Source: Thermoplasmatales archaeon
GTDB lineage: Archaea; Thermoplasmatota; E2; DHVEG-1
Direction: 5' to 3'
Assembly: GCA_030672305.1 (NCBI GenBank)
Contig: DAOVGR010000052.1
Location: 3,961 to 67,960, forward strand
DNA length: 64,000 nt
Part shown: positions 1-46,424 of the stretch, in pieces
How the letters are laid out: the number at the start of each line of letters is the position of its first letter
Numbering within the stretch: the stretch's first letter is position 1
Notes under the pieces: generated by a model
Databases searched by the model: none
What the model was told of the DNA's origin: nothing
The model's input: only the letters and a program-made list of their open reading frames with translations
Made by a program: the position numbers and the translations under genes

Positions 1-2
1 TT

Positions 3-1619
3 ACACTTGAATATTGGCATGATGTTGGAATCGATGAAATTACCTCACCAACTGGTGAAGGACATCCAAGGGAAGGAGATGAAATTCTTTGGGACAACGG
101 TGTACCCGACGGAAGAAACGGTCTACCAGGTTCAATGTACCAAGGATATAGTAACATAATTATTGATGATTTTTTAGTTAAGGAAGATTGGACAGTCCAA
201 GGTGGACATATTAATTTCGTTTGGAACAGTGGATACACAAGTAACACTGAAACAATAAGGGTGTACTTTTTCCAAGATTTAGGAGATTGTGATCCGTCTC
301 TGGATGAATTTGCTACGACAGAAGCAAACACATTTACAGAAATAGCAACTGGGAATTACTATTTCAGTCGCCCTGAGATAATCGTAGACTTCCTATTAGA
401 CGATGAAATAAAACTTACACCAGGAAAATGGTATGTAGGTATCCAACCAGATGGAATAACTGAAAATATTGCATATCTATTAACAGCTAAAGATAAAGAA
501 TGCATGGTCATGGCAGACCTTCCATATTATGGCTATCCAAGATGGTCAAGCTCTCAATATCTATGGGGTCAAGCATATGACCTTGCATGGCAACTTGATG
601 GTACAACAGGTGGACCTCCAGCAGTTAAAGCTTGGATACAACCTGGAACACAAGACATTGATACAGTTGTGAAAAACTATGGTACATTTATAAAAGAGGA
701 CCTAACTTGTTACGCTGAAATCTGGGAATACATCACAGATCCTGAAAATGGAACAAAAGTCTATACGGATGAAATCGACAATATAGATTTGACAATCCCA
801 CTTGGTGGTAAGCAAGACATACAGTTTGCTGATTTCACATTTGCAGATGAAGGACGCTATGGATTATTCCTTGAATTCCCCGCTGTACCTGATGATGAAG
901 AAAAAAATAATTATGTACGATGGGGAATAGGCGTTGATGATACTCGCCCATATTCATGGATTGAAGAAATTGATCCACCTGAGCCTGATGGTCAAAATGG
1001 TTGGTATATCAGCCCTGCCACAATAACACTGAAAGCAACTGATCCCTGGTCCAATGGAGTATCATCTGGAGTAAAAGAAATCAGATTCACAATAGATGGC
1101 GGAGCTGAACAAGTCATTCCTGGAAATATTGGAAGTATTATATTAACTGAAGATGGCAAAGACATTCTTATTGAATTCTGGGCTGTTGATTGGGTTGGAA
1201 ATGTTGAAACACCAAAGAACCAATTTACATTTGGTGGTATCGATCAAACAGTACCAGAGATATCACTAAGTTACGAGGTAACTAGTGGTAATCCAATAAC
1301 AGGTTGGATATTAACCTTTACAGCAACAGCAATTGATGCAACTAGTGGTATGGACTATGTTGAGTTCTATTTTAATGATCTATTACAAGAAATTATTATG
1401 GGCCCTGGACCAACCTATGAATGGGTTTATACATATTATGGTGGATTAACAGCAATTATAAAAGCAATTGCATATGATAAGGCAGGACTATTTGATTCTG
1501 ATGAAATTAAAGATCCAGTAAGTTCTTCAAACAGTCACACAATAAGTAGCCAAAAAAGTGTTAGCAGAAGTTATCAACAATTTATTAATCCCTTATTTAG
1601 ATTAATTAACAATCGTTAA
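3..1619 (+). CDS. 5'-truncated secreted multidomain protein with Ig-like beta-sandwich domains and a degenerate copy of the island tail
   Basis: Frame 3 is open from the window edge (TLEYWHDVGIDEITSPTGEG precedes the first Met at 135), so the gene starts upstream of the window. Beta-sandwich-like segments are present (GWYISPATITLKATD..VKEIRFTIDGG; TVPEISLSYEV). The C-terminus YQQFINPLFRLINNR weakly resembles the FPILRxL tail. No catalytic motif recognised. Confidence 0.75.
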   Translation, partial: TLEYWHDVGIDEITSPTGEGHPREGDEILWDNGVPDGRNGLPGSMYQGYSNIIIDDFLVKEDWTVQGGHINFVWNSGYTSNTETIRVYFFQDLGDCDPSLDEFATTEANTFTEIATGNYYFSRPEIIVDFLLDDEIKLTPGKWYVGIQPDGITENIAYLLTAKDKECMVMADLPYYGYPRWSSSQYLWGQAYDLAWQLDGTTGGPPAVKAWIQPGTQDIDTVVKNYGTFIKEDLTCYAEIWEYITDPENGTKVYTDEIDNIDLTIPLGGKQDIQFADFTFADEGRYGLFLEFPAVPDDEEKNNYVRWGIGVDDTRPYSWIEEIDPPEPDGQNGWYISPATITLKATDPWSNGVSSGVKEIRFTIDGGAEQVIPGNIGSIILTEDGKDILIEFWAVDWVGNVETPKNQFTFGGIDQTVPEISLSYEVTSGNPITGWILTFTATAIDATSGMDYVEFYFNDLLQEIIMGPGPTYEWVYTYYGGLTAIIKAIAYDKAGLFDSDEIKDPVSSSNSHTISSQKSVSRSYQQFINPLFRLINNR

Positions 1620-1685
1620 TATTATATATATAGTGTCTATTTTCTAATATTATTCTAATGTATTAGCTTGGAGGCAAAAAATAAT

Positions 1686-3506
1686 ATGAATATTAATTTT
1701 TTCAGGAGAATGATTTCAATAATTTTTATAATTATACTTGTTATGATAAGTATAATACCATTTGTTTCTAGTATGTCTATTAAAAGCCATACAAATTTTG
1801 AGAATCAATATGCACCACTTGATATGGATTGGTGGCCAATGTTTCATCATGATGCCGATCAGAATGGCTTTTCAACATCTTCAGCTCCAGAAACAAATAA
1901 TGTTTTATGGTCATATCAGACAGATTATCTAATTACTACTTCACCAAATGTTATAAACGGAAAGGTATACATTGGATCATTGGATAAAAAATTCTACTGT
2001 TTTGATATGATGAATGGTAGTGTTTTATGGAATTTTACCACAAAAGGTCAAATAACAGGCTCTTCAGCAGTCCATGATGGGAAAGTCTACTTTGGATCTC
2101 AAGATTCAAAATTTTATTGTTTGAATGCTGATAACGGCAGTCAAATTTGGAAATTTGATACTAATTTTATGATCGAATCATCACCAACAGTTAAAGATGA
2201 CAAAGTCTTCTTTGGCTCTAGTGATGGTTCTATTTACTGTCTAAATACTAACAATGGAAGTCTAATTTGGGAGTACTCAGTAGGAAATGTAATTTGGACA
2301 GCTCCAGCAATCTCTGATGGAAAATTATACTTTGGTTCACTTAGCGGAGATATTTTTTGTTTAGATATTACAAATGGAGATTTTGTATGGTCATATTCAA
2401 CAACTAGTGGAATATGGTCGTCTCCAGCAATATACGGAGGAAAAGTTTATTTTGGATCAAATGACAATTATGTATATTGTTTAGACGCAGATGACGGAAA
2501 TCTGATATGGAATTATAATACAGAAGGAGAAGTTCATTCTTCACCAGCAATTGCCTATGGAAATGTTTACATTGGCTCAAGCGGTCAAGGTTTGTTTTGT
2601 TTAAATGCAGAAACAGGTGATCTGGTCTGGCAATTTCTGATAAACAATGGAATCTGGTCTTCACCTGCTGTTGCAGATAATAAAGTTTTTTATGGAAATG
2701 ATCCTTGTTGTGGCACTCCTGCTTATTTTCACTGTAGTGATGCATTTACTGGAGATATGATTTGGCAATATAATATCGGTGGGGATATTGGTATGAAATC
2801 ATCTCCAGCTATTGCTGCTGGAAAAGTGTTTATTGGAGCAGGTAATGGCATGGTGTTTGCATTTGGCGGAAATGAACTTTATGCTGATGCTCATGGTTCA
2901 TATGCTGGTGTTGAAAATATACCTATTCAATTTAAAGGCAGTGCTTATGGTGGAAGACCGGATTATTCATGGCATTGGGAGTTTGGTGATGGTGAATCAT
3001 CAGATGAACAAAATCCGGTTCATTCTTATTCTATTGAGGGAAATTATATTGTGACTTTAACAGTTACAGATAATAAAAATAATATAGCAAGTGATGAGAC
3101 TTCAGCAGTAATTAAAGAAGATATTAATTATCCACCTGATACACCAGTTATTGAAGGTCCATCAAATGGTATAATTGGTGAAGAATACACTTATTGTATT
3201 TCAAATATTATTGATCCTAATGGCGATAATATTTTCGTATTTTGGGATTGGGGAGATGGTACAAATAGTGATTGGCTTGGACCATTTGCAAGCGGAGAAA
3301 AAGTATGTGAAAATCACATTTGGAATAAAAAAGGAGATTACACAATTAAGGCAAAACTTAAAGATGTAAATGATGAAGAAAGTGATTGGGGATATCTTGA
3401 AATCACAATGCCAAAATACAGCAGGACATCTTATTTACTATTCCAAAATTGGATAACCCAATTACTAAATGCTTTTCCATTAATAAGACAGTTAATAAAT
3501 CTTTAG
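1686..3506 (+). CDS. Secreted PQQ-like beta-propeller protein + PKD + DWGDG (type A) module + conserved C-terminal tail
   Basis: ATG at 1686 lies 11 nt after GGAGG; the ORF track starts at TTG 1668. Signal anchor MNINFFRRMISIIFIIILVMISIIPFVSS. About 8 repeats of G[KN]VY[FI]GS.D..[FV]YCL[DN]...G...W.[FY], typical of PQQ/BamB-like propellers. Canonical PKD segment (YSWHWEFGDGESSDEQNPVHSY). Type A module (YTYCISNIIDPNGDNIFVFWDWGDGTNSDW). Tail MPKYSRTSYLLFQNWITQLLNAFPLIRQLINL. Confidence 0.9.
   Translation: MNINFFRRMISIIFIIILVMISIIPFVSSMSIKSHTNFENQYAPLDMDWWPMFHHDADQNGFSTSSAPETNNVLWSYQTDYLITTSPNVINGKVYIGSLDKKFYCFDMMNGSVLWNFTTKGQITGSSAVHDGKVYFGSQDSKFYCLNADNGSQIWKFDTNFMIESSPTVKDDKVFFGSSDGSIYCLNTNNGSLIWEYSVGNVIWTAPAISDGKLYFGSLSGDIFCLDITNGDFVWSYSTTSGIWSSPAIYGGKVYFGSNDNYVYCLDADDGNLIWNYNTEGEVHSSPAIAYGNVYIGSSGQGLFCLNAETGDLVWQFLINNGIWSSPAVADNKVFYGNDPCCGTPAYFHCSDAFTGDMIWQYNIGGDIGMKSSPAIAAGKVFIGAGNGMVFAFGGNELYADAHGSYAGVENIPIQFKGSAYGGRPDYSWHWEFGDGESSDEQNPVHSYSIEGNYIVTLTVTDNKNNIASDETSAVIKEDINYPPDTPVIEGPSNGIIGEEYTYCISNIIDPNGDNIFVFWDWGDGTNSDWLGPFASGEKVCENHIWNKKGDYTIKAKLKDVNDEESDWGYLEITMPKYSRTSYLLFQNWITQLLNAFPLIRQLINL
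3408..3503 (+). other. Conserved C-terminal tail (copy in PQQ-propeller protein)
   Basis: MPKYSRTSYLLFQNWITQLLNAFPLIRQLINL-stop. Confidence 0.75.
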
Positions 3507-11480: not shown

Positions 11481-13670
11481 TTAGAAATGTAAAAAAAAGT
11501 GTAATAATTTATATAGATTTGGACAAAGATGTGATAACCTCATTAATAATAGATTGTTAATGTTCTTTTCCCGTAGAATATTTATTTCTAATTCCTTCCA
11601 GAGGCTTTCAGCATCGTATGGATCTTTTGATTTGGCTTTTATTGTAAAAGTACTTTTTTCAGACCATGAGTGTGATTTAACTATTACTTCCCCTGAATTA
11701 AAAGGACCAAACCATCCAGTATTTGTTTCATCTCCCCAGTCAATATAGTACCAAACAATTGTACCTTCTGGATCAGTTGCTAAAAATGTGTAATCATACG
11801 ATATTCCTGGTTTTCCAGTTGTTGGACCATCAATGCTTAATTGAACTGGTGGATCATTTGATTCTTGAATCCAAGACCAAGTATAATCACTTGAAGAATT
11901 TCCAATATCATCTGTAATTGTTAAAGAAACCGAATAGTTTCCTGGTGTAGTATATGTGTATGATGGATTCTGCTCATCAGAAGAACCTCCATCACCAAAA
12001 TCCCATTCCCAGCTGTAGGGAGGATATCCACCAAATGCATATCCCTTGAATTGCACAGGTTCATTAATCAATCCATAATAAGGACCATATGCTTCAGCTT
12101 CTAAGGTCTCTCCAGCAGCAAAGATATAATCTATTCCATCAGTTGAAGGCCCTGAATAACGTTCAGATGAGTAAATATTCTCATTTGTATCCCAATGCTC
12201 ATGAACACCAAGACTATCCGATATGTATTTCCCATCATTTTCAGGATCGTAGACGTTTTCTGGTGGATCTGCTGATTGATGTAAATAGTTTTGTGATCCC
12301 TCACACGGATTAGATTCTTCAAGGAGAAAATCGTACATAACTGAATCTAATGCAACAGAGTCCTGTGAGAAGAAAAGACTGTTTGTCCAGTCGTTGTTGA
12401 ATGGATACATTTGAAATTTACCAATTGTAGCATGATCATAAGGTGTTGCAAAAATTCCATCTCCAATATTTAAAACAACCTTTCCACCAACATCCTTATG
12501 GGCAAAAAGATCTGTTTGTGGTGCTGGATTTCCTAATGTAAAGGATATATCATGATAATTATGAATTGCTGAAACAGGTTCCATCCATGTACCAAAGAAA
12601 TTCTTACCTGCCAGGGTTACACCTGTACTTATCGGATGTCTCTTAAGTATTGGCATATTGATAAGATAATCAGCTTCGACAATACAAGTAGGAAGTGTTC
12701 TATATTCACAGCTACCGGCTGCAAAATAAATCCTTTCGGTGCTTGCAATAACCTTTTCTCGACCAGATGCACCTCCAGAGGAATCTTCATAGTGAATATT
12801 TTCAAATTCAGGTATTAAAGGATCAGCAGGATATTCTTCATAGTAAACACGATTGTAGAGCCAGTTTGCCATTTGACGGGATGCATCATAAATTGTGATA
12901 TCCTCTTGAGCAACATTTAAAACGTTAACAAGCTGTCTAAGAAGTGCCTTGATTACATAAGGACTTGCATCTCTTTGATTATCTTCACCTGTGTATGATC
13001 CACAGTTATTTAGATTGATTTTTATTGCTATTTTCTCACCAGGCTGGTAACCTACATCCCCATAACCATGTTCCTGGTTGAAATGGCTAAAAAGAAGGTC
13101 CCATGCTGAGTAATCATCATTTGTATCAGCCAATGTCTTTAATCCTAAAGAAAACATCTGATCAATTATAGTTTGATTGTTGTTTTGTTTTTCCCACCAA
13201 TATCCATTTAGATTTTCTTCTGAGGCATTAGCATTCCATCCCCATACTACTCGTCCAGGTTTATAACCTTGAGGAGTCCCGATTGGTTCTTTAGGTATTG
13301 GGTCCCACCTTGTGATTTTATTTTCATCCTTTGTTTCATTAACAGCATATACATTACTTGTAATCGAGAAGATTAAGACAAAAGCAACTAAAATAACAGG
13401 TGCAATAGCAGCTGTTTTATATTTTACTCTTCTAAACCACAAACCAAGTCCATGAAATATTGCACTCCACAATAAACTCCAAAAAGCAATATATCCAACT
13501 GCTACTGAAACAGATATTTGCTGACAGGGATAACGAATTCGATCAGGTCTAGGTAACACTCTAAGCAGGAACCAGATGATAGCTGCTAGTCCTGCTAAAT
13601 GAAATAATATACCTTGATGGCTAGATAATTTCATTAATAAATTTGATTTATTTTTATGATGTTTGCTCAT
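11481..13670 (-). CDS. Membrane-anchored (3-4 TM) DUF362-like domain protein + PKD + type A module + degenerate tail
   Basis: N-terminal hydrophobic helices (GILFHLAGLAAIIWFLLRVL; VAVGYIAFWSLLWSAIFHGLGLWF; AAIAPVILVAFVLIFSITS). The central ~400 aa is assigned to DUF362 from memory only. PKD segment (YSWEWDFGDGGSSDEQNPSYTY). Type A module (YDYTFLATDPEGTIVWYYIDWGDETNTGW). C-terminus LREKNINNLLLMRLSHLCPNLYKLLHFFLHF. Confidence 0.8.
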   Translation of the reverse strand: MSKHHKNKSNLLMKLSSHQGILFHLAGLAAIIWFLLRVLPRPDRIRYPCQQISVSVAVGYIAFWSLLWSAIFHGLGLWFRRVKYKTAAIAPVILVAFVLIFSITSNVYAVNETKDENKITRWDPIPKEPIGTPQGYKPGRVVWGWNANASEENLNGYWWEKQNNNQTIIDQMFSLGLKTLADTNDDYSAWDLLFSHFNQEHGYGDVGYQPGEKIAIKINLNNCGSYTGEDNQRDASPYVIKALLRQLVNVLNVAQEDITIYDASRQMANWLYNRVYYEEYPADPLIPEFENIHYEDSSGGASGREKVIASTERIYFAAGSCEYRTLPTCIVEADYLINMPILKRHPISTGVTLAGKNFFGTWMEPVSAIHNYHDISFTLGNPAPQTDLFAHKDVGGKVVLNIGDGIFATPYDHATIGKFQMYPFNNDWTNSLFFSQDSVALDSVMYDFLLEESNPCEGSQNYLHQSADPPENVYDPENDGKYISDSLGVHEHWDTNENIYSSERYSGPSTDGIDYIFAAGETLEAEAYGPYYGLINEPVQFKGYAFGGYPPYSWEWDFGDGGSSDEQNPSYTYTTPGNYSVSLTITDDIGNSSSDYTWSWIQESNDPPVQLSIDGPTTGKPGISYDYTFLATDPEGTIVWYYIDWGDETNTGWFGPFNSGEVIVKSHSWSEKSTFTIKAKSKDPYDAESLWKELEINILREKNINNLLLMRLSHLCPNLYKLLHFFLHF

Positions 13671-35057: not shown

Positions 35058-35085
35058 TTAAAAGAAAAGAGGGTATTAAAACCCT
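35058..35085 (-). terminator. Hairpin + oligo-T terminator overlapping the stop of 35076-36671
   Basis: Sense strand: AGGGT-TTTAAT-ACCCT, then CTTTTCTTTT. Confidence 0.5.
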
Positions 35086-36671
35086 AATAGATGCCTTAAA
35101 ATTGGGAACGCATTCGGAAATCTTTCGAATAACCTGAGGAAAAATGGATTATAAACAGCTTTGTTTCTTGGTGTTAGAAGATACACATCAATCTCACAGG
35201 AGTCACTTGAATCATCTGAGTTGACTACTTTTACTGTTCCAGTAAATTCTGTTTCTTTATCATCCGGTGCAACAACTTCAACATCAACTGTTATTGAATC
35301 TCCAAGAGGTAGACCTGTTCCACTAGCAGGAGTAAATGTCCATTCGCCCCATTCTGGGTATTCATCAACTTCCCAGTTTAGTTCAGATCCAGGTTCACCC
35401 ATGCTTTTCACAATGAAGCTACCCTGTACAGTGCCTCCTTGTGGTGCACTTTCCCATCTTAATTCACCCTCACAATATAAATTAGATTCATATCCAGGGA
35501 TGTATTTGTAAACTCCACCAGTATACTCATCTTGACTGAAGGAACCAGCCCAACCTATTATGCCTTCTACCCAAGTTGTTGCAAACAGTTGAATTCCAGA
35601 TACTTCAGTCCATTCTATCCAGGTATGACCGCCATCAAAGCTATATGAAGCTCCTTGATATGTAGGATCACTTGAATATACACCAGTACTTATATATAAA
35701 TTATCAGTACCTGGAACATAATCAAAATCACCTGAGTAACATAGTCCAGTTTGATCTATCATTGTCCAGGTTTCACCACCATCTGATGTTTCGGCAATAA
35801 TTCCTTCTGTTGATTCACGCTTATCCATTGCAAGACCATTATTTTGATCCTTGAATCGAGTATCTACCCAACAACCACTGCCAAATGGGGTATCTGCAAC
35901 AGTCCAATGGTAACCTCTATCTGTTGATTTGAAAACACGTCCTCTATCTGCTGAATATTGAGTACCCCACCAAACGGTATCTCCGACAACATCATAATAT
36001 CCAACTGTACCATACTCACCAGAACCCAAAGGTTCAGGTATATTTTCCTCTGGAACTCTCACCCAAGTATCTCCACCATCAGTTGTTGTATACATCTCAT
36101 AATATCCATCAACTGGATCGCCCTGGCAAAAACCATCGTTTTCGTCCCAGAAATGTACAACGTTAGGAAATGATCCAGTTTCATTATAAACTGCTGTATC
36201 TTGATGAACCCATGTAATTCCACCATCAGATGTTTTCCAAATACCTTGAGGATTACCAGAATGCATCGCAATCCATGCTGTATTTTCATCTAATGCATAA
36301 ATCATAGCAATTCTTCCATCATCTGGTGCTTCGCTTATAATATCTGCAAACCACTCATCACCACCATTTGTAGTTTTTGTAAATTCTCGACAAGGACTGG
36401 TTCCAGATAGTCCATCATATGCAGCAGCCCAAACAACATTTTCATCTACGGCATGCATAAAAGTCAAACCTCTGCTTGGCTCCCAAAATCCTGTAGCTTG
36501 TTCAACCCATCCAGGACCCTTTGATAATAATAATTTTAAGGGATCATTTACTATATTCTGAGGTTTTATAGTATCTCTTTGGTTAATCATTGCTGACGCT
36601 GGCATCACAAAAGCAAAAACTATAGCAAAAATTATAGTTGCTTTCAATATATTTTTTCCAATTTTTTTCAT
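35076..36671 (-). CDS. Secreted BNR/Asp-box beta-propeller protein + type C module + conserved tail
   Basis: Signal peptide. Asp-box repeats TTNGGDEW, SDGGITW, TTDGGDTW, STDRGYHW, SDGGETW, FDGGHTW. Type C module CEGELRWES..GSELNWEVDEYPEWGEWTFTPASGTGL. Tail TPRNKAVYNPFFLRLFERFPNAFPILRHLLGF. Confidence 0.9.
   Translation of the reverse strand: MKKIGKNILKATIIFAIVFAFVMPASAMINQRDTIKPQNIVNDPLKLLLSKGPGWVEQATGFWEPSRGLTFMHAVDENVVWAAAYDGLSGTSPCREFTKTTNGGDEWFADIISEAPDDGRIAMIYALDENTAWIAMHSGNPQGIWKTSDGGITWVHQDTAVYNETGSFPNVVHFWDENDGFCQGDPVDGYYEMYTTTDGGDTWVRVPEENIPEPLGSGEYGTVGYYDVVGDTVWWGTQYSADRGRVFKSTDRGYHWTVADTPFGSGCWVDTRFKDQNNGLAMDKRESTEGIIAETSDGGETWTMIDQTGLCYSGDFDYVPGTDNLYISTGVYSSDPTYQGASYSFDGGHTWIEWTEVSGIQLFATTWVEGIIGWAGSFSQDEYTGGVYKYIPGYESNLYCEGELRWESAPQGGTVQGSFIVKSMGEPGSELNWEVDEYPEWGEWTFTPASGTGLPLGDSITVDVEVVAPDDKETEFTGTVKVVNSDDSSDSCEIDVYLLTPRNKAVYNPFFLRLFERFPNAFPILRHLLGF
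35079..35174 (-). other. Conserved C-terminal tail (copy in BNR-propeller protein)
   Basis: TPRNKAVYNPFFLRLFERFPNAFPILRHLLGF-stop. Confidence 0.85.
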
Positions 36672-36832: not shown

Positions 36833-36872
36833 AAAAATAAAATAGAAAAGAGAGGGCTAATTTTATAGCCCT
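36833..36872 (-). terminator. Hairpin + oligo-T terminator overlapping the stop of 36863-38011
   Basis: Sense strand: AGGGCT-ATAAAATT-AGCCCT, then CTCTTTTCTATTTTATTTT. Confidence 0.5.
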
Positions 36873-38011
36873 AATAGCTGTCTTAATATCGGGAACGCAT
36901 TTGGGAAACGCTCGAAAATCCTGTACAAGAACGGAAAATTCACTGTCTTACTTCTCGGTGTCAAAACATACACATCAATTCTACAGAAATCACTAGGATC
37001 ATTAGAGTTGATAACCTTAATATCGCCAAAGAATTCCATCTCTGAATCAGGTGGAGCAACAAAAGATACATCAACTGTAACAGGTCCAGCTTCTGGAGTC
37101 AAACCAGTACCACTAGCAGGAGTAAAAGTCCAATCAGAACCCCACTCAGGATACTCAGAAACCTCCCAATCAAGCTCAGAACCAGCATCGCCACCATTCT
37201 CAACAGTAAAACTACCGGTAACAGTAGAACCAGGTGTAACATCTTCCAATCTAAGCTCACCAGCACATTTCAGATCAGGGAAACTTGGCCAACCCTCTAC
37301 TAAAGACATACCATCATAATAGACCTCAGTAGCAGCATTTGCAAAAAGATCTACAGCAGCAATATCTAAGAGACCAAGACCTTCGTTACCGGGTCCTGCT
37401 GTCCAAGCCTTCTCGGCCAAGAGTTGTCCATTATAATAGAACTTGAACAAGTCTACATCAAGATCGATTAATGTTAACAACTCAACCCATTGGCCTGTTA
37501 TCAACGGCAAATTAATTGCATCGTGTTCTGATTCAGCTACCTGATTTAGTGCATCGAATCTAATCTGTATAGCCCATTTATTTTCCTGTCCAGCACCATC
37601 TAAATAGTCACTTAACAAGATAAAATATGAGTTACCCGAAAAATCTTCTGGTATATACTGATATGCAACATAAGACCATTGCCCACTAGTATAACCCTCG
37701 TATTCATGTACTAGATCTACATTGTCTACAACTTCCACTGATTTTACACCATCATAAGCTTGGGTATCCACAACATATGCACCATATGCTGAATCACCGT
37801 CCCAACCTTTCCAGCCACCATCTGCAGGATCTGATTCATTATCTAAATAATGCCCTACAGCATAGCTTTCAAAGTCATCAGACCAACTTCTGCCTGATGG
37901 TAAAACACCTTTCTTCATAGATACACTGCTTACACTAGATCCAAAAGCAGCTACAACAAATAGGACCACTAATCCTATCACCGACATCTTACTTAATAGC
38001 TTTTTATTCAT
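36863..38011 (-). CDS. Secreted protein (unassigned beta-rich domain) + type C module + conserved tail
   Basis: ATG 38011 lies after GGAGGTGA (MNKKLLSKMSVIGLVVLFVVAAFGSSVSS); the ORF-track start at 38146 would add 45 non-signal residues. Type C module CAGELRLED..GSELDWEVSEYPEWGSDWTFTPASGTGL. Tail TPRSKTVNFPFLYRIFERFPNAFPILRQLLGL. Confidence 0.85.
   Translation of the reverse strand: MNKKLLSKMSVIGLVVLFVVAAFGSSVSSVSMKKGVLPSGRSWSDDFESYAVGHYLDNESDPADGGWKGWDGDSAYGAYVVDTQAYDGVKSVEVVDNVDLVHEYEGYTSGQWSYVAYQYIPEDFSGNSYFILLSDYLDGAGQENKWAIQIRFDALNQVAESEHDAINLPLITGQWVELLTLIDLDVDLFKFYYNGQLLAEKAWTAGPGNEGLGLLDIAAVDLFANAATEVYYDGMSLVEGWPSFPDLKCAGELRLEDVTPGSTVTGSFTVENGGDAGSELDWEVSEYPEWGSDWTFTPASGTGLTPEAGPVTVDVSFVAPPDSEMEFFGDIKVINSNDPSDFCRIDVYVLTPRSKTVNFPFLYRIFERFPNAFPILRQLLGL
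36866..36961 (-). other. Conserved C-terminal tail (copy in type C protein)
   Basis: TPRSKTVNFPFLYRIFERFPNAFPILRQLLGL-stop. Confidence 0.85.
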
Positions 38012-38217
38012 TTTACCAATTTCACCTCCCTTTTTATTATATATAACATAACTGGGTTTTAAAATTTTCGGCGTTAAAAATAATTCATTTCCAATAAATT
38101 TACAACAATAATATTTTATATCTTCTATAACATTACAAATTATCACTATTCACAAAAGACGATAGAGTTATATAATATTAAAAGCAATTATATATTTAAT
38201 TGAAGAGGTGTAAAACT

Positions 38218-40119
38218 ATGAAAAAGTTATTACCACTTCTAGTGGTAGGGATTTTAGCCCTGGGAGGTTTTGGAGCTTTTGCTATATCTTTAAGCGAAAA
38301 ACAAAATTTTGAACAAACAACAATCTATTTTTCAGAACCAACAATAAAGGTTAATGAGAAGTATATATCTTTAGATTTACCAGAAACAACCACCTTTACT
38401 TGGGAAACAGATAAACCAATGTTACCTGTTTATACGAAAGTATATACATTTTCCTTTGGAACAAAAATAAATAGTGTGGATGTTAAGTTTTCAAATCCTA
38501 TTGAACAAGAAATATCAATGCCAATTAAGCCAGTATATGAGTCAAAAATACAATCAATATATGCATCTCATAAAATTGAAGAATCTGAAAATTTGTTTAC
38601 TTATTCGGATATTGATATTTATCCAGACCATCAATTCAGTTTTAGAACAGGTGTAGGTTTAAAGAATCTAGAACATGCAACTATACTAACAGTACATCTC
38701 TACCCTATCCAATATACTCCAAAAGAAAACAAAATTACCTATTCAAAATCTGCAACAGTTGATATCTATTATTCCTCACCTCAAGAAATTGTTGATTTCC
38801 AGGATGTGTATGACTTTTTAATTATCACCTACGACAAATTCCAATCAGCTTTGCAGCCTCTTGTGGATCTTAAAAATCAAAATGAAATAAATACAAAAAT
38901 GGTTACACTTGATGATGTCTATGATGGCACATATTTTGAGGTTGAAGGTATTGATGCACCAGAAAAAATTAAATATTTTATTAAAAATGCTTTAGAACAC
39001 TGGAATATTCATTATCTGCTTCTTGTTGGTAGTGGTGTTGAAGGTGCAGAAAAATTTCCAGTAAGATATGCCTACATGCCAGATCCACCTCATGAAGAAC
39101 AATTCGGAAGTGTTCTTTATTATGCTGACATATACAAAGAGGGGGGTGAATTTGCAGATTGGGATTATGATAACGATAGTCGTTATGCTGAGTATCCTCA
39201 AGATGTACTAGATGTAGATCTTTATCCAGATGTTTGCCTTGGATTGTTGCCTTGTAACAATGCCAGAGAAGTCAAAGCAATTGTAAATAAAATAATTAAT
39301 TACAAAGCACATAATAAAATGACAAATAAGATTGTACAAATTGGCGGTGATACCTTTCCAGGAGATCCTGAGCATATATATGAAGGAGAATTTGCAAATG
39401 AATGTGTCATGGAAGTATTACCTGGATATAGTACAACCCGATATTGGGCTTCTGAAGAAGAACTAACAAAAGCAAATATTGCAAAAGGTTTTAAGAGCAG
39501 CGTAGATTTTATGGATTTTTCTGGTCATGGTGGAACTACAGTATGGGGAACACATCCACCTGAAGATGAGGAAAAATGGGTGCCTGCAGCAACTCTAAGA
39601 TCACCCTATTTCTATTACTTTAATTTCGATTTTGATCTATACTTTGTAAACAATAATAAAAAATTACCAGTAGTAGTCTATAACGCATGTTCAAATAATA
39701 AATGGACAAACTCTGAGCAGTGTCTTGGTTACAAAACACTTAGTAAAAAGAATGGTGGAGGTATTGCATCATTTGCTGCTTCAGCATTAGGATTTGGAGA
39801 TCATGGAAGTCAAGAATGTGAAAGAAGATGGGGTTGGTGTGAAGTTCATACTTTTGAAGGATTAGTCAATGACAAAATACTCGGGAATGTATGGACTGAT
39901 GTCATAACAAACTATGTTGATAATTTTTCTTCACTAAGTTGGGATCGAATAGACCAAAAAACAATGCTAGGATATTCAATGTTTGGAGATCCAACTCTAG
40001 CAATTGAAGATGGTGATGACCCAGTTTATCTTCCTGAAAACAAACCATTGTTCAATTTTTTTGAGAAGATATTAGATTTTTTATCTAGAATAGTAAAGAT
40101 ACTTCAACAAATTCTATAA
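38218..40119 (+). CDS. Secreted C25 (gingipain)-like clan-CD cysteine peptidase, paralog of 24566-26311
   Basis: ATG 38218 lies after GAGGTG. Signal peptide MKKLLPLLVVGILALGGFGAFA. ETDKPMLPVYTKVYTF, YLLLVGSG, DFSGHGGTTVWG (His), LPVVVYNACSNN (Cys). C-terminus PLFNFFEKILDFLSRIVKILQQIL is tail-like but degenerate. Confidence 0.85.
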   Translation: MKKLLPLLVVGILALGGFGAFAISLSEKQNFEQTTIYFSEPTIKVNEKYISLDLPETTTFTWETDKPMLPVYTKVYTFSFGTKINSVDVKFSNPIEQEISMPIKPVYESKIQSIYASHKIEESENLFTYSDIDIYPDHQFSFRTGVGLKNLEHATILTVHLYPIQYTPKENKITYSKSATVDIYYSSPQEIVDFQDVYDFLIITYDKFQSALQPLVDLKNQNEINTKMVTLDDVYDGTYFEVEGIDAPEKIKYFIKNALEHWNIHYLLLVGSGVEGAEKFPVRYAYMPDPPHEEQFGSVLYYADIYKEGGEFADWDYDNDSRYAEYPQDVLDVDLYPDVCLGLLPCNNAREVKAIVNKIINYKAHNKMTNKIVQIGGDTFPGDPEHIYEGEFANECVMEVLPGYSTTRYWASEEELTKANIAKGFKSSVDFMDFSGHGGTTVWGTHPPEDEEKWVPAATLRSPYFYYFNFDFDLYFVNNNKKLPVVVYNACSNNKWTNSEQCLGYKTLSKKNGGGIASFAASALGFGDHGSQECERRWGWCEVHTFEGLVNDKILGNVWTDVITNYVDNFSSLSWDRIDQKTMLGYSMFGDPTLAIEDGDDPVYLPENKPLFNFFEKILDFLSRIVKILQQIL

Positions 40120-42120: not shown

Positions 42121-44217
42121 ATGAAGAAAATTTTACCATTAATATTAATAGGAATTTTAGTACTTAGTGGATTTGGAGCTGTAGCAATAAATAGTGACAA
42201 TGAAAAACTTCAATTAAAAACAATAAGATCAATCACACCTATTAAAGGAGGGCGTGATTTTACCCATCCGGTTCTTGGGGAGTTTGGTACTGCTACCTGG
42301 TGTGGTTATTGTAAATTTGCACACTCGGCATTAAAGGAAATCTACAGCGAGGGATTTTATCCATTTCATTATATATCAATGGTTGGGGATAAAAATAAGA
42401 ATGCTTATGATAGAATAAAAGAGGATTATAATCTCTATGGTTATCCAACATTATGGTTTGATGGCGGTTATATAGTAAATGTTGGTGCAGGAAGTACTGA
42501 AGGTGCTAAAGCTACATATAATACAAGCATAAATTCATGTGGAAGCAGAGGTGTAAATGATGTTGATATATCACTTGACGTCGAATGGCTTGGACCGGAT
42601 AATCCCAATCCAGCAGATGGTATTACTGAAGTAGCTATTGAGAAATGTCTTAGTTGGACAAACTCAGAAATGAAGATTTCAGTTACAGTTGATAATAATG
42701 AAGGGAGTACATACGAAGGTACCCTACGTGTATATGTAAACGAAGTTGTATCTTCAATGGACTGGGATGATCAATTTGGCAATCCATATACTTTCCCATT
42801 TTTAGATTTTGCATTTGAGGAGGAAATTTCAATAAATGCTGGACAAACATGGGGAGACAATACATACTGGGATGGTAAAAATTATAATGATGGATATGGA
42901 AACGATTTTAGAGATATAACTCAAGAAAATATAATGGTAATTGCTGCGGTATTTGATGATGAAGTGCATGATGGATATTCTTATCCTCCAAGTGGATATC
43001 CATTTGATGCATATTACGTTGATGAAACTGAAGGTTTTCTTGCAGGTGTTGACACGGATCCAAAAACATTTGATGTCTATTTTGGTGAAAGTAGTCCTCC
43101 ACCTAAAGTATCCAGTAATCAATCCGATTTGGAGTATTGTCCCAATAATCTAGAATTCAGTACAACATATTATTGGCAAATTGTGTTATGGGATAATCAG
43201 GGATCCTCATTTACCGGACCAATATGGAGTTTCACAACAAGAGGTAATGATCCTCCAAATTCACCAAGTGATCCCGATCCAGAAGATGGAGAAACTGATA
43301 TTCCCATCAACACCTGTATTAGCTGGATATCTGATGATCCTGATGGTGATAATGTAACCTATGATATCTATTTTGGTGACATTAATCCCCCACCAAAAGT
43401 ATCCAGTAATCAGAGCAGTACAACATATTGCCCTGATGAGGTACTCGAATTTGATACAATTTATTATTGGAAGATTGTTGCGTGGGACGAATATGGAGAA
43501 ATTTCAATTGGAGCAACATGGAATTTCAAAACCGAACCAAATTATCCACCAAATACACCGAGTGATCCTGATCCTCCAGACGGAGCAAATGATGTATCTA
43601 TTAACAAGCTTCTAAAATGGGTTGGTGGAGACCCGAATCAGGGAGACAAGGTTATGTATGATGTATACTTTGGCACGAGTAGTCCTCCTCCACTAGTAGT
43701 TGAAGACCTACTTCAAACAGCTTATGATCCTGGTATAATGGAAGTAGAAACAATATATTATTGGCAGATAATTGCAGAAGATATGGAGAGTATAACTACA
43801 ACAGGACCATTATGGTATTTCACAACAGAAGTTGAACACAATGAACCACCTACACTACCAGATATTGATGGCCCAGTAAGGGGATCAGCAAATGTGGAGT
43901 TATGCTGGACATTTCATTCAGATGATCCTAATGATCACTTTATCAGATATAATATTGACTGGGGAGATGGAAACTCTGAAGTAACATTGTATTATGAACC
44001 TTGTACACCAAAAGAAGTATGTCATACCTACGAGAAAAAAGGGTCATATATCATAAAAGCTACTGCTGAAGACGAAGAAGGACTTTTTAGCGGAGAAAGC
44101 ACATTTGAATTAATAATTCCAAGAAACAGAGCAATATACAATCGATTTCTCTTACGGTTGTTTGAACGATTTTTAAATGAAAATCTGATCCTCAAATATA
44201 TTCTAGGGATATTTTAG
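42121..44217 (+). CDS. Secreted thioredoxin-fold (WCGYC) protein + 3 FN3-like repeats + type B module + conserved tail
   Basis: Signal peptide MKKILPLILIGILVLSGFGAVA. Trx-like EFGTATWCGYCKFAH..YGYPTLWFDGGY. Three repeats with D[VI]YFG..PP..V...YYW.I. Type B module ELCWTFHSDDPNDHFIRYNIDWGDGN..CTPKEVCH. Tail IPRNRAIYNRFLLRLFERFLNENLILKYILGIF. Confidence 0.9.
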   Translation: MKKILPLILIGILVLSGFGAVAINSDNEKLQLKTIRSITPIKGGRDFTHPVLGEFGTATWCGYCKFAHSALKEIYSEGFYPFHYISMVGDKNKNAYDRIKEDYNLYGYPTLWFDGGYIVNVGAGSTEGAKATYNTSINSCGSRGVNDVDISLDVEWLGPDNPNPADGITEVAIEKCLSWTNSEMKISVTVDNNEGSTYEGTLRVYVNEVVSSMDWDDQFGNPYTFPFLDFAFEEEISINAGQTWGDNTYWDGKNYNDGYGNDFRDITQENIMVIAAVFDDEVHDGYSYPPSGYPFDAYYVDETEGFLAGVDTDPKTFDVYFGESSPPPKVSSNQSDLEYCPNNLEFSTTYYWQIVLWDNQGSSFTGPIWSFTTRGNDPPNSPSDPDPEDGETDIPINTCISWISDDPDGDNVTYDIYFGDINPPPKVSSNQSSTTYCPDEVLEFDTIYYWKIVAWDEYGEISIGATWNFKTEPNYPPNTPSDPDPPDGANDVSINKLLKWVGGDPNQGDKVMYDVYFGTSSPPPLVVEDLLQTAYDPGIMEVETIYYWQIIAEDMESITTTGPLWYFTTEVEHNEPPTLPDIDGPVRGSANVELCWTFHSDDPNDHFIRYNIDWGDGNSEVTLYYEPCTPKEVCHTYEKKGSYIIKATAEDEEGLFSGESTFELIIPRNRAIYNRFLLRLFERFLNENLILKYILGIF
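43050..43835 (+). repeat. Three in-frame FN3-like coding repeats (~90-95 aa each) inside 42121-44217
   Basis: Repeating PP.[ST]PSDP.P.DG..D[VI]......W...DP.....V.YD[VI]YFG....PP.V.......Y.P...E..T.YYW.I.A.D..G.....G..W.F.T. Coordinates are approximate. Confidence 0.8.
44116..44214 (+). other. Conserved C-terminal tail (copy in Trx fusion 1)
   Basis: IPRNRAIYNRFLLRLFERFLNENLILKYILGIF-stop. Confidence 0.8.
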
Positions 44218-44339
44218 TCCAAAATTCTCTTTCTTTTTTTTTTTATTTTTCAGATTATTAATGGAAAATTTTAAAATACTAGGTAAATTATTAACAATTG
44301 TAAATATACTAAAAAGCAATTTTACAAAGGGGGTAGAAA

Positions 44340-46424
44340 ATGAAGAAAATTTTACCGTTATTAGTAATAGGAATTTTGATTCTTAGCGGATTTGGAGCTG
44401 TTGCACTAAATAGTGACAATGAAAAACTTATTTTTGAAAAAATAGAAAATGAAAAGAATGGTGATAAAGGAAATGAGTTCACTCATACTATTCTTGGAGA
44501 ATTCGGTACAGCTACATGGTGTGGCCATTGTTGGAAGGCACATGGTGCTTTAAAAAATATATATGCAGGTGGATGGCATCCTTTTTATTATGTTTCTTTA
44601 GTTGATGACGTAAATGTGCATTCTGAAAATAGAGTTGATGAATTGGTTATTAGCGGATATCCAACAGTATGGTTTGATGGTGGCTACAAAAAGGATGTAG
44701 GAGCAGCGAGTGTTGAAAGCGCTCAGGCACTTTATAACACTAGTATTGTTTCCTGTGGTGAAAGAGAAGTTTATGATATTGATATTGACCTGGATGTTAC
44801 TTGGAATGGAAATGCAGAGATGGATATAGATGTCTCTGTTGATAATAATGAAGATAGCTCATATAGTGGACACTTGCATGTATATGTATCAGAAATTCAG
44901 TCTTCTATGGGTTGGGAGGATACATCAGGAGTTCCCTATACTTTTCCATTTTTAGACTATGCATTTAATGAGGATATATCTATTTCAAGCGGAGGTACAT
45001 GGCAAGATTCTATTACTTGGGATGGACATAATTATAATAACGGTTATGGAGATGATTTTGGAGATATTACATATGGAAATATTATGGTTATTGGAGCAGT
45101 TTTTGATTCAGAAGAAGAATATGTTGATGACGCAACAGGATATAGAGTAGGTGATAATGCCGCTCCATATACTCCAAGCGATCCTGATCCAGAGGATGGT
45201 GATACAGATATTATCGTAGAGACTGATATTAGTTGGACTTGTACTGACCCTGATTTTGATGTTTTATCTTTTGATATATATCTTGGTGAAAGTTCTAATC
45301 CACCATTAGTAGCATCAGACATTGTTGGTACATCATATAATCCAGGATTACTAGATTTTAATACCAAATATTACTGGAAAATAGTTGCTAATGATCCTCA
45401 GGGGGCTTCAACATCCGGACCAATATGGGATTTCACAACTAGAGATAATGATCCACCGAACTCACCAAGCGATCCAAATCCAGCGGATGAAGAAACTGGT
45501 GTCCCAATAAATACTTGTATAAGCTGGACATGTGATGATCCTGATGGCGATGATGTAACTTATGATGTCTACTTCGGTAAGAATGGGGAAAACCTAATAT
45601 TAGTTTCGAGCAATCAAAGTAGTACAAATTATTGTCCCGAAGAACTTCTTGAATTTGAAACACGTTATGATTGGAAGATTATCGCTTGGGATGTATATGG
45701 ATTTTCAACAGTTGGTTCAACATGGTATTTCATAACTGAAAAAAACATTCCTCCAAATACACCAAGTGAACCAAATCCCCAAGATGGAGAAATTGACGTC
45801 CCAATTATCAAGCTTCTCAGATGGACAGGCGGAGACCAAAACCAAGGAGATAAAGTATATTATGATGTATACTTTGGCATAAGTAGCTCTCCTCCACTTG
45901 TTGCTGAAGATCTACTTCAAAACGCTTATGACCCTGGTACAATGGAAGTGGATACAACATATTATTGGCAGATTGTTTCAGAGGATAGTTCAGGTGCAAC
46001 CACAGCCGGTCCAATATGGCATTTCACTACTGAAGCAGAACCCAATCAACCACCAACTTCACCAGACATTGATGGTCCATCACAAGGGTCTGCAGGAACA
46101 GAGTTAAGCTGGACATTTCATTCAGATGATCCTGATGAAAACGATATCAAGTACATAATCGACTGGGGAGATGGAAAAAACTCTACAGAGACTGATTATT
46201 ATCCAGCATGTACACCTGTAGAGGTATGCCATATCTATGCAGAAGAAGGAACATATATTATAACAGCCACAGCAGAAGATATAAAAGGATCTAAAAGCGA
46301 TGAGAGTACATTTGAAATCACAATTCCAAGAACGAGGACTGTGCATCACCCTATACTCTTAAGAGTTTATGAAAAACTCCTAAATATGTTTCCAATAATA
46401 AGAAACTTGTTTGGACTAGAATAG
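44340..46424 (+). CDS. Tandem paralog: secreted thioredoxin-fold (WCGHC) protein + 3 FN3-like repeats + type B module + conserved tail
   Basis: Same architecture as 42121-44217, with nucleotide-level similarity in the signal peptide and repeat regions. EFGTATWCGHCWKAH; type B ELSWTFHSDDPDENDIKYIIDWGDGK..CTPVEVCH. Tail IPRTRTVHHPILLRVYEKLLNMFPIIRNLFGLE. Confidence 0.9.
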   Translation: MKKILPLLVIGILILSGFGAVALNSDNEKLIFEKIENEKNGDKGNEFTHTILGEFGTATWCGHCWKAHGALKNIYAGGWHPFYYVSLVDDVNVHSENRVDELVISGYPTVWFDGGYKKDVGAASVESAQALYNTSIVSCGEREVYDIDIDLDVTWNGNAEMDIDVSVDNNEDSSYSGHLHVYVSEIQSSMGWEDTSGVPYTFPFLDYAFNEDISISSGGTWQDSITWDGHNYNNGYGDDFGDITYGNIMVIGAVFDSEEEYVDDATGYRVGDNAAPYTPSDPDPEDGDTDIIVETDISWTCTDPDFDVLSFDIYLGESSNPPLVASDIVGTSYNPGLLDFNTKYYWKIVANDPQGASTSGPIWDFTTRDNDPPNSPSDPNPADEETGVPINTCISWTCDDPDGDDVTYDVYFGKNGENLILVSSNQSSTNYCPEELLEFETRYDWKIIAWDVYGFSTVGSTWYFITEKNIPPNTPSEPNPQDGEIDVPIIKLLRWTGGDQNQGDKVYYDVYFGISSSPPLVAEDLLQNAYDPGTMEVDTTYYWQIVSEDSSGATTAGPIWHFTTEAEPNQPPTSPDIDGPSQGSAGTELSWTFHSDDPDENDIKYIIDWGDGKNSTETDYYPACTPVEVCHIYAEEGTYIITATAEDIKGSKSDESTFEITIPRTRTVHHPILLRVYEKLLNMFPIIRNLFGLE
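45160..46040 (+). repeat. Three in-frame FN3-like coding repeats inside 44340-46424
   Basis: Same repeat family as 43050-43835. Coordinates are approximate. Confidence 0.8.
46323..46421 (+). other. Conserved C-terminal tail (copy in Trx fusion 2)
   Basis: IPRTRTVHHPILLRVYEKLLNMFPIIRNLFGLE-stop. Confidence 0.8.

Follow-up and report, generated by a model that had tools for sequence, protein, structure and literature searches.

A tail of about 32 residues sits at the extreme C-terminus of many exported proteins encoded in the 64,000 nucleotide stretch of Thermoplasmatales archaeon DNA analysed here (contig DAOVGR010000052.1, positions 3,961 to 67,960; "the window" below), and it is very probably a sorting or retention signal for the proteins that carry it. 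Its consensus is [M/T/I]-P-x-[N/S]-x, a spacer of 6–9 residues, and then the C-terminal LLxRLFERFPNAFPILRxLLGL. The tail is unannotated in the copies of Pfam and NCBIfam that were searched.

Eight ORFs of the window had been described as ending in nearly the same sequence, and they are present as written. When a profile made from 145 tails, all from outside the window, was searched against all 872 stop-to-stop ORFs of at least 30 aa, these eight took the top eight ranks (E = 2.5e-19 to 3.6e-3), and the next-ranked ORF had E = 0.46. All eight matches stop 0–2 residues short of the stop codon. The tails, each read from the translation, are as follows:

32650..32745, plus strand: tail IPRTRTAYHPLLLRFFERFPNTFIILRALLGI of carrier 31459-32748 (DUF4394-like and PKD); profile E = 2e-13, ending 1 aa from the stop; AlphaFold2 helix-turn-helix.
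35079..35174, minus strand: tail TPRNKAVYNPFFLRLFERFPNAFPILRHLLGF of carrier 35076-36671 (BNR/Ycf48-like and Ig-like sandwich); profile E = 7.6e-19; AlphaFold2 helix 103-111, FPN turn, helix 115-122.
36866..36961, minus strand: tail TPRSKTVNFPFLYRIFERFPNAFPILRQLLGL of carrier 36863-38011 (Ig-like sandwich ahead of the tail); profile E = 2.5e-19; signal peptide from the ATG at 38011.
44116..44214, plus strand: tail IPRNRAIYNRFLLRLFERFLNENLILKYILGIF of carrier 42121-44217 (weak thioredoxin and PKD, Pfam); profile E = 3.3e-9.
46323..46421, plus strand: tail IPRTRTVHHPILLRVYEKLLNMFPIIRNLFGLE of carrier 44340-46424 (PKD, Pfam); profile E = 5.2e-10.
21730..21825, minus strand: tail IPRTRSLSRPILQLLLERVQNLFPILWNIINL of carrier 21727-23736 (M14 carboxypeptidase and PKD, Pfam); profile E = 1.8e-5.
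3408..3503, plus strand: tail MPKYSRTSYLLFQNWITQLLNAFPLIRQLINL of carrier 1686-3506 (PQQ propeller and PKD, Pfam); profile E = 3.6e-3, the weakest of the eight.
14618..14689, plus strand: short tail TPLLNILEGYPNLFPILRYILGFQ of carrier 13958-14692 (cyclophilin, Pfam), without the P-x-N start and the spacer; profile E = 1.2e-9 (profile positions 6-32).

At related loci the stop codon lies at most 3 residues past the tail end in 105 of 119 matches, nearly all of the best 150 of 818 database matches likewise end within 3 residues of the stop, and exactly 5 residues follow P-I-L-R in 118 of 137 tails. Eleven positions, among them E, R, P, N, P and R, are conserved at 83–99%; at the domain boundary, [M/T/I]-P-x-[N/S]-x shows moderate conservation, below that of the hairpin described further on. 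In one variant Ser replaces Phe and Ile residues, and xPNAxPxLRQLL is still present. Between the window tails, 33–79% of identical residues (median about 60%) use different codons, so the likeness is held at the protein level and is not that of a DNA repeat. The basic PRxR/K start that the original prediction gave as a general feature does not hold up: position 3 is Val in 27% of the outside tails, and the commonest start is "MPVNQ".

Six further ORFs had been said to end in degenerate versions that can be aligned to the family. Scored against 300 composition-preserving shuffles and 689 control C-termini, these do not stand by the profile alone: five reach 3.1–6.3 bits, are matched by 3–14 of the 300 shuffles and rank 13–20 among the controls, and the sixth is at chance level:

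28876..28965, plus strand: short-turn variant IPRTQQNRIINWFYTHPFLQYILQILLNIL of carrier 26335-28968 (also given as 26332-28968; weak C25 and PKD-like); 6.3 bits, 4/300 shuffles.
40030..40116, plus strand: divergent tail LPENKPLFNFFEKILDFLSRIVKILQQIL directly behind the C25 domain of peptidase 38218-40119 (also given as 38200-40119); 4.4 bits, 4/300 shuffles.
11484..11579, minus strand: divergent tail ILREKNINNLLLMRLSHLCPNLYKLLHFFLHF of carrier 11481-13670 (DUF362 and PKD); 3.5 bits, 14/300 shuffles.
19409..19540, minus strand: divergent, longer tail IPRGKSIVKSSLLQLLKGDFVINRLSEILNIIFRINILNQGAKI of carrier 19406-21613 (FG-GAP and PKD, Pfam); 4.4 bits, 3/300 shuffles.
24346..24444, plus strand: possible decayed tail ISTSRTTTHYRIILYEIFHVLKKIKNEILDFYL of the small PKD protein 23869-24447; -1.2 bits, 104/300 shuffles, chance level by profile.
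1536..1616, plus strand: very weak candidate ...SVSRSYQQFINPLFRLINNR of the N-terminally truncated ORF 3-1619; 3.1 bits, 7/300 shuffles, its sole support.

What does support common descent with the canonical tails is the retention of variants by orthologues and the existence of intermediate forms. The L003 orthologue of 26335-28968 (81% identical) retains the tail ...THPFLKYLIQVLQNIF, and the L001 orthologue of the C25 peptidase (88% identical) retains its divergent tail; other C25 homologues are tail-less and end in ...GDPSLxIGGY. Other proteins whose match to 11481-13670 covers part of that carrier (28–30%) bear canonical tails at their C-termini, as do homologues of 23869-24447, in the same position and at about equal length. 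ORF 3-1619, which matches no Pfam domain, is the weakest case. The window thus holds eight canonical and up to six divergent tails within 46 kb.

An N-terminal hydrophobic segment is present in 101 of 109 N-terminally complete carriers (93%), and both of the exceptions that were checked are artefacts (an ORF running across masked sequence and a start codon called too early). The profile matches are overwhelmingly exported proteins, and not mainly the cytoplasmic ones that had been named beforehand as evidence against the idea. Within the window a signal peptide or signal anchor was found on all complete carriers, as claimed; the start proposed earlier for 36863-38011 (ATG at 38011) yields the signal peptide MNKKLLSKMSVIGLVVLFVVAAFG. 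Of the passenger domains, PQQ propeller, FG-GAP, M14, cyclophilin, DUF362 and the C25 domain of 38200-40119 are recognized by Pfam; BNR/sortilin, thioredoxin and the C25 domain of 26332-28968 fall below its cut-offs and are weak. The tail is portable, as had been proposed, and is found behind PKD domains, a second Ig-like sandwich, cyclophilin, a C25 domain and a subtilase. The 101 carriers contain 49 Pfam families, and the passengers are unrelated extracellular modules. Some match NCBIfam "choice-of-anchor" families or a myxosortase-dependent peptidase family, whose members bear known sorting signals in other lineages.

Among 1.84 billion proteins, 818 cluster representatives bear the tail, and species-representative genomes hold 190 confirmed sites. 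Of these, 80 were retrieved, from about 30 MAGs, 27 of them named Thermoplasmatota or Thermoplasmatales. Copies per genome run from several to many (at least 15 loci in one MAG). The tail-bearing archaea are uncultured and form a common group in sediment. No Pfam-A or NCBIfam 20.0 model matches the tails alone even at E ≤ 10, and the 101 full-length carriers reach no described sorting-domain model in either collection, so the tail lies outside the models of both, where a match to a described sorting domain would have counted against its novelty; text searches of the papers available found no description of it.

Two independent AlphaFold2 runs (carriers 35076-36671 and 31459-32748) predict a coil, a helix (103-111), a turn and a second helix (115-122), in line with the amphipathic helix, Pro-Asn break and second short helix foreseen earlier; confidence in the tail is moderate (pLDDT about 73), and the models carry no placement of the hairpin relative to the membrane. 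In both models the tail stands apart from the domain before it. Both predicted helices show hydrophobic faces, with a hydrophobic moment of up to 0.7–0.94. By the Hessa apparent free energy (summed, position-independent, best 19-residue stretch per tail) the tails range from +8.4 to +19.8 kcal/mol with a mean of +13.4, and the controls (signal peptides taken from these carriers, and a polytopic protein) give about -3.5 to +0.8. On this scale the tail is far too polar for a membrane-spanning helix.

Like PGF-CTERM with archaeosortase A and the other tripartite signals (LPXTG, PEP-CTERM, GlyGly-CTERM, MYXO-CTERM, CGP-CTERM), the tail is short, conserved, at the extreme C-terminus and carried by many unrelated signal-peptide proteins per genome; it is also lineage-restricted and presumably sets protein fate at the cell surface. 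The layout nevertheless differs, as had been noted: there is no uninterrupted hydrophobic helix (2–3 prolines together with E, R and R), the chain ends in LLGL without a terminal Arg/Lys cluster, and conservation peaks in the helical core and not in a short motif ahead of it. It also matches no curated model. The window encodes DUF401, an ArsP permease and a DUF6249-like protein as its polytopic proteins, and neither there nor in the families listed for polytopic neighbours was an exosortase or archaeosortase found.

Our tentative first choice for its function is a retained, non-covalent hairpin anchor. Sec would export the carrier by way of its N-terminal signal peptide; the last 24 or so residues would fold as two short amphipathic helices around the FPN(A)F turn; and the hairpin would rest at the outward-facing interface of the cytoplasmic membrane, held by a putative conserved partner, so that the exoenzyme or folding catalyst would remain on the cell. 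The least secure step is that the tail would stay on the mature protein. The working model is the anchor of E. coli PBP5 and PBP6, Sec-exported enzymes that a C-terminal amphipathic helix holds to the outside of the cytoplasmic membrane without crossing the bilayer. The tail differs from these in having two helices and a fixed Pro-Asn turn, in its extreme conservation across hundreds of protein families at a fixed distance from the C-terminus, and in being a portable module that dozens of proteins in a genome carry.

Conservation so far above what is usual for lipid-binding amphipathic anchors speaks against a hairpin anchor, and we propose that the 11 conserved positions and the Ser variant reflect recognition by a partner rather than by lipid alone. 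Anchoring rather than release is suggested by the cyclophilin and thioredoxin-like carriers, since folding catalysts would be useless if they diffused away. Two comparisons would also favour anchoring: a tail-less cyclophilin homologue in L086 has an N-terminal lipobox-like FLATC instead, and some divergent tails that are kept in orthologues have lost the motif and retained amphipathicity. Against a retained tail, the well-studied short C-terminal tags with many copies per genome (LPXTG, PGF-CTERM, GlyGly-CTERM, MYXO-CTERM and the T9SS C-terminal domain) are, as far as is known, all cleaved, and cleavage might take place at the boundary element [M/T/I]-P-x-[N/S]-x.

A cleaved sorting signal is possible, though we think it doubtful. 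The hairpin would then park the precursor at the membrane for a dedicated endopeptidase or transpeptidase, which would read the core and cut near [M/T/I]-P-x-[N/S]-x. The mature protein would end up in covalent linkage with a lipid or with a component of the envelope, in the manner of ArtA/PGF-CTERM or myxosortase/MYXO-CTERM. The high conservation of the core, its fixed distance from the C-terminus and the general fit to the search criteria for sorting signals (C-terminal, many copies per genome, conserved motif, unrelated exported proteins; bioRxiv 10.1101/2023.06.07.544157) favour it. However, the tail lacks both a transmembrane segment and a basic cluster that could hold the motif at a membrane-embedded active site, and the hairpin is better conserved than the putative cleavage motif, whereas in known signals the order is the opposite.

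One candidate enzyme is a 250-aa CPBP/Rce1-like intramembrane protease, encoded in L055 with intact EExxxR, FxxxH and HxxxN motifs 1.5 kb from three carriers. Its best 120 matches are 67–99% identical, and almost every one is 250 aa long (the few with an organism name are Thermoplasmatota). Of eight genomic contexts, five have a tail or tail-like carrier no more than 5 kb from the gene. Members of CPBP subfamilies have been proposed to sort four further C-terminal signals, including the archaeal CGP-CTERM (bioRxiv 10.1101/2023.06.07.544157). Yet these contexts are not independent, the region beside the gene is a variable island with integrases in it, which may make the linkage a coincidence, and the window has no CPBP gene; myxosortase-type signals, moreover, have an invariant Cys and a tripartite layout, and the tail has no Cys. 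We take the protease as a weak lead.

The other candidate is a C25-family peptidase; such peptidases are common near tails, with 21 homologues in 19 of 81 loci. Type IX secretion (T9SS) offers a parallel, in which many unrelated exported proteins of C25-rich genomes share a C-terminal signal, frequently behind Ig-like domains; its C25-family sortase PorU keeps its own C-terminal domain, and some C25 proteins of the tail system bear variant tails themselves. The T9SS signal, however, is a beta-sandwich of 70–100 residues and not a 32-residue helical element, the carriers match no T9SS model, the C25 protein scores 43 bits against a PorU cut-off of 420, and the hosts are archaea without a known outer membrane or T9SS. 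Cleavage by an Arg/Lys-specific C25 enzyme is made less likely by the 27% of tails that begin without any basic residue. The eukaryotic GPI-attachment signal, defined by physical properties only, shares a small boundary residue (N/S/A), a spacer of 6–9 and a hydrophobic C-terminal stretch without basic residues; the tail differs in its nearly invariant sequence, and the residue two places past the candidate site is not small.

We consider it unlikely that the tail serves in docking or assembly, as a peptide that binds the S-layer or a receptor scaffold, or bundles with other tails into a cell-bound exoenzyme complex with a function like that of dockerin-cohesin. Its conserved polar and proline residues do suggest protein-protein recognition, the Ser-for-Phe variant loses hydrophobicity and keeps PNAxPxLR, the hydrophobic faces of both helices could pack as a bundle, and carriers are grouped in islands; but among the neighbours no protein with repeated binding modules was found that could be the receptor, and the tail resembles neither dockerin nor any Pfam domain. 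Least probable of all is a temporary tether or pro-peptide that holds new enzymes at the membrane, or inactive, until a protease frees them into the sediment: many carriers are hydrolases, their lineage is reported to be rich in genes for extracellular peptidases (PMC6461988, PMC9585477), and the boundary motif and variable spacer could form an exposed cleavage site, but the passengers (propellers, lectin-like domains, cyclophilin) vary too widely to share one inhibitory pro-peptide, the presence of folding catalysts favours retention, and the tail's predicted separation from the preceding domain also counts against it. Most likely, then, the tail keeps exported enzymes on the surface of these archaeal cells, where it would be read by a putative partner.

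Positions 1-46,400 of the window, whose G+C content is about 32%, form an island of genes for signal-peptide proteins, and the rest of it carries housekeeping genes. An archaeal source fits the gene for diphthamide synthesis that the window encodes and the TFIIB and A/V-type ATPase genes of the related loci (numbered L001-L094, all outside the window). One carrier, as we call the proteins that end in the tail, has a close relative among the annotated proteins of a closed "Thermoplasmatales archaeon" MAG. The eight strong tails of the window are identical on direct translation to those written out in the original prediction. To avoid circularity they were scored with a profile made of 145 tails that all come from outside the window; among the 872 stop-to-stop ORFs of at least 30 aa in the window they take the first eight ranks (E 2.5e-19 to 3.6e-3), the ninth-ranked ORF has E = 0.46, and in all eight the match ends 0-2 residues from the stop. 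When the window tails are compared pairwise, different codons are used at 33-79% of the identical residues (median about 60%). Selection has therefore acted on the peptide, and an origin of the tails as a DNA repeat or by recent duplication is rejected. The island also encodes a small protein of 134 aa, with four transmembrane segments by prediction and a weak DUF6249 match, which occupies the same place in the window (33465-33869) and in its two closest relatives (L001 7373-7774 and L003 3102-3503).

The tails are 24-34 residues long. Their consensus starts [M/T/I]-P(99%)-[R/K/V]-[N/S]-[K/Q/R], where the value for Pro is inflated because of the way in which the tails were selected; 6-9 variable residues follow, and then a core that runs to the C-terminus, (P)-L-L-x-[R/W]-L-[F/L]-E94-R83-F92-P98-N88-A76-F99-P95-I89-L93-R97-[Y/H/Q]-L-L-G85-L82 (numbers are percentages). 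The signature motif ERFPNAFPILR is thus 76-99% conserved per position, and exactly five residues, mostly hydrophobic, follow the last Arg of P-I-L-R in 118 of 137 tails. The cyclophilin carrier has the core only, so this helix-turn-helix core must be the essential unit. A basic start, PRxR/K, had been taken as a general feature of the tail, and this does not hold, since position 3 is Val in 27% and the commonest start is MPVNQ. The proposed amphipathic helix, Pro-Asn break and second short helix, on the other hand, are predicted by AlphaFold2 on both of two different carriers (54 and 102 aligned sequences), in which a beta-sandwich (pLDDT about 97) is followed by a tail made of coil, a helix at 103-111, an FPN turn and a helix at 115-122 (pLDDT 71-78). 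The hydrophobic moment reaches 0.7-0.94, and the spacing of charged residues at i, i+3 and i+4 is as described. A PDB sequence search with the tail profile gave only chance-level matches (best E = 0.23), and a Foldseek search of the model against the PDB gave only generic Ig-like or PapD-like matches, all of them to the preceding sandwich.

Carriers are overwhelmingly exported proteins, as had been predicted: an N-terminal hydrophobic segment is present in 101 of the 109 that are N-terminally complete, whereas among the other genes of these loci 255 of 548 have one. Two of the exceptions were inspected and are not genuine, one being an ORF that crosses masked sequence and the other having its start codon called too early; the remaining six resemble fragments or ORFs that were mis-called. 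Pfam families represented in the 101 carriers from outside the window number 49, among them NosD/beta-helix, FG-GAP, cadherin-like, CBM96, clostripain and BNR. A PKD domain precedes the tail in 60 of these 101 and a second Ig-like sandwich in many others, and the tail is also joined directly to a cyclophilin, a C25 domain or a subtilase; thus the tail alone is portable, beyond any unit made of PKD plus tail, and its description as an independent, shuffled unit stands. NCBIfam models that match carriers include the "choice-of-anchor" J and D domains and a myxosortase-dependent M36 peptidase family, whose members bear known sorting signals in other lineages. The tail occupies the normal place of a sorting signal.

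A 22-sequence tail profile gave 818 matches at E <= 0.001, 25 of them at E <= 1e-10, among 1.84 billion cluster representatives, and in nearly all of the best 150 of the 818 the match ends at the C-terminal end of the protein. A scan of one genome per species gave 295 pattern matches, of which 190 were confirmed as sites. The best 80 of these 190 lie in about 30 MAGs; judged by their titles only, 27 of these are Thermoplasmatota, Thermoplasmatales or Thermoplasmata, two are "Methanobacteriota archaeon" and one is "uncultured archaeon". [quoted passage not shown] The related loci hold 119 tail-bearing ORFs, up to five per 20 kb, and in 105 of these the tail comes to within 3 residues of the stop codon. 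Tails occur in multiple copies per genome: one MAG has at least 15 loci, the closed MAGs have 4-6 each, and the window has 8 canonical tails. In a closed Thermoplasmatales MAG, a heliorhodopsin gene (L029 1348-2106, Pfam E = 1.6e-93) adjoins a cluster of five carriers.

The six tails of the window that had been called degenerate fared less uniformly: most are tied to the family by orthologues or intermediates, and none was picked up by the profile. Five score 3.1-6.3 bits, which corresponds to 3-14 of 300 shuffles and to ranks 13-20 among 689 control C-termini, and the sixth, that of 23869-24447, is at chance level by profile. In homologues of 23869-24447 the C-terminus is a canonical tail of similar length, and variant tails are kept by the orthologues of two others, that of 26332-28968 in L003 (81% identical) and that of 38218-40119 in L001 (88% identical). 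Related genomes also contain intermediate forms without NAFP, such as ...LEQFPMLQKLLLFLK and ...WLDRFPLLQRLMGWFIW, on the following carriers.

Carriers with the "short-turn" subtype of tail, which is without the four residues NAFP
L018, 5535-7304: short-turn tail
L027, 13162-15222, minus strand: short-turn tail
L027, 15108-16676, minus strand: short-turn tail
L032, 19439-20056: short-turn tail
L040, 10252-11472: short-turn tail

This subtype is a bridge from the canonical tail to the divergent tails of the window, which we count as divergent or decaying copies of the canonical tail; the membership of 3-1619 is doubtful. In two database proteins, P0279 and P0300, Ser replaces conserved Phe and Ile (...NQSPNASPSLRQLLVR), so that the tail is much less hydrophobic, and the pattern Pro-Asn-Ala-x-Pro-x-Leu-Arg survives. 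Internal tails are rare. Database protein P0127 has a tail in mid-protein and then a further module with a tail of its own at the end, apparently through fusion of two neighbouring carrier genes by stop loss, and in L012 10875-11570 about 150 further residues follow the tail.

Known C-terminal sorting signals are tripartite: the motif is followed by a transmembrane helix and then by an end rich in Arg (bioRxiv 10.1101/2023.06.07.544157). The tail resembles this class (LPXTG, PEP-CTERM, PGF-CTERM, GlyGly-CTERM, MYXO-CTERM) in its C-terminal position, in its many copies per genome on unrelated signal-peptide proteins, and in having a conserved motif, ERFPNAFPILR with the boundary [M/T/I]-P-x-[N/S]-x. 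Unlike these signals, and in agreement with the original prediction, it has neither an uninterrupted membrane-spanning hydrophobic segment nor a C-terminal basic cluster, and the chain ends [Y/H/Q]-L-L-G-L. Its novelty likewise withstood comparison with described models: no sorting-domain model in NCBIfam 20.0 or Pfam-A matched the tails alone at E <= 10, the canonical tails from outside the window had no match among curated models, and none is present among the 25 NCBIfam and Pfam families most often matched by the 101 carriers. Text searches of the literature for the tail motif, and for archaeosortases or sorting signals in Thermoplasmatota or MBG-D, found no description of it. The C-terminal domain of the T9SS is a beta-sandwich of 70-100 residues, whereas the tail is 24-34 residues long and predicted to be helical, and no T9SS sorting-domain family is among those listed for carriers. 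Dockerins, with a duplicated calcium-binding segment of about 70 residues, differ in length and predicted fold, and no Pfam model matched the tail region. With the in-plane anchors of the PBP5/6 type, a functional class and not a homology family, the tail shares a C-terminal, amphipathic, non-spanning helix on an exported protein. The tail is a real, widespread C-terminal signal of unusual architecture, apparently undescribed, and is new within a known kind of system.

What has been demonstrated is where the tail lies, that it is portable and conserved, that its carriers have export signals and that it is not transmembrane; its mode of action can then be considered. The predicted hairpin might lie at the outer membrane interface and so keep the protein on the cell, and we tentatively favour a retained anchor, at somewhat less than even chances. 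Retention is supported by the presence of folding catalysts among the carriers (the cyclophilin, and weak thioredoxin matches), by the lipobox-like FLATC that opens a tail-less cyclophilin homologue, and by the conservation in orthologues of variant tails that are amphipathic and without the motif. A protein partner is favoured by the near invariance of E, R, P, N, P and R, by the fixed distance to the C-terminus, and by the retention of PNAxPxLR in the variant with Ser for Phe and Ile. That the tail is instead a signal that is cleaved, the protein then being covalently re-attached, seems to us only a little less likely than a retained anchor, and slightly less likely again is a complete new sorting system in which a dedicated enzyme would read the amphipathic helix-turn-helix signal, cut at P-x-N/S and fix exoenzymes covalently to the envelope. 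For such an enzyme a 250-aa CPBP protein conserved in this lineage would be the best candidate and a C25-family transpeptidase the alternative. Arginine-specific cleavage at PRxR by gingipain-like C25 peptidases is weakened because the common start MPVNQQ has no basic residue. A transmembrane anchor is rejected on hydrophobicity: the tail core holds E, R, N, R and 2-3 Pro, and on a position-independent Hessa scale the summed free energy of its best 19-mer is +8.4 to +19.8 kcal/mol (mean +13.4), against about -3.5 to +0.8 for the carriers' signal peptides and a polytopic control.

Lipobox-like N-termini were seen in window 29035-30180 (...LIFSGCTD) and in the tail-less cyclophilin homologue L086 2304-3170 (...FFLATCST), and they suggest that, within the same gene islands, anchoring as a lipoprotein serves in place of the tail. 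C25 homologues (window 24566-26311, and others in L005, L039, L042, L048 and L074) mostly end tail-less in ...GDPSLxIGGY; 38218-40119, unlike most of them, has a 29-residue amphipathic extension straight after this point. As a PorU-type sortase 38218-40119 is rejected, its 43 bits against PorU (cut-off 420) and 43 against the PorU-related model (cut-off 450) showing general C25 homology only.

The search for a partner gave one weak lead. No exosortase or archaeosortase is encoded in the window, as first reported, and no recurrent non-carrier neighbour emerged when 881 genes from 80 loci and the window were clustered; the neighbours that recur most (a B12/radical-SAM enzyme, a Big_7 protein and an unannotated protein) appear to belong to ordinary multi-copy families. 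Polytopic neighbours of tails are mostly transporters, UbiA enzymes and the like, with 10 of the 88 scanned matching the UbiA prenyltransferase family. Arrays of polytopic paralogues lie near carriers, with six consecutive copies, each of about 340 aa, in L044 (291-6891) and three in L017 (2592-8375); they are taken to account for most of the UbiA matches, the scan not specifying which members matched, and have no established link to the tail. C25 peptidases are frequent near tails (21 homologues in 19 of 81 loci), with scores far below the PorU cut-offs. The lead is a CPBP/Rce1-like intramembrane protease, 250 aa long and with its catalytic motifs intact, encoded at L055 847-1596, 1.5 kb from three carriers; the window has no CPBP gene. 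The best 120 matches to the protease share 67-99% identity and almost all have its length of 250 aa, and the few with an organism name are Thermoplasmatota. The gene lies in a fixed block of HpaB, a variable island, CPBP, NDK and a 135-aa protein (L055 and L082-L094, with CPBP at about 10001-10753 in most), in which the island carries secreted proteins, tail carriers or integrases according to the genome. A tail or tail-like carrier is present in the island or flank in 5 of 8 contexts, and in two lineages a C25+PKD protein ends 110-170 bp before the CPBP gene. Because these contexts share ancestry and the island holds integrases, we regard the CPBP protease as a lead and not as evidence.

The tail is a widespread signal that lies outside the tripartite rule, and searches based on that rule would miss it and others like it. 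With a tail profile, hundreds of families that at present are called just "PKD domain protein" or "hypothetical" would receive a specific name, and the profile is a query with which a partner can be sought by phylogenetic profiling. Marine Benthic Group D (Thermoprofundales) is among the commonest archaea of marine sediments and is thought to break down buried protein by means of exported peptidases (PMC6461988, PMC9585477). Whether such enzymes are free or held on the cell alters models of MBG-D ecology and kinetics, and the tail singles out a large and definable group of exported proteins that probably stay on the cell.
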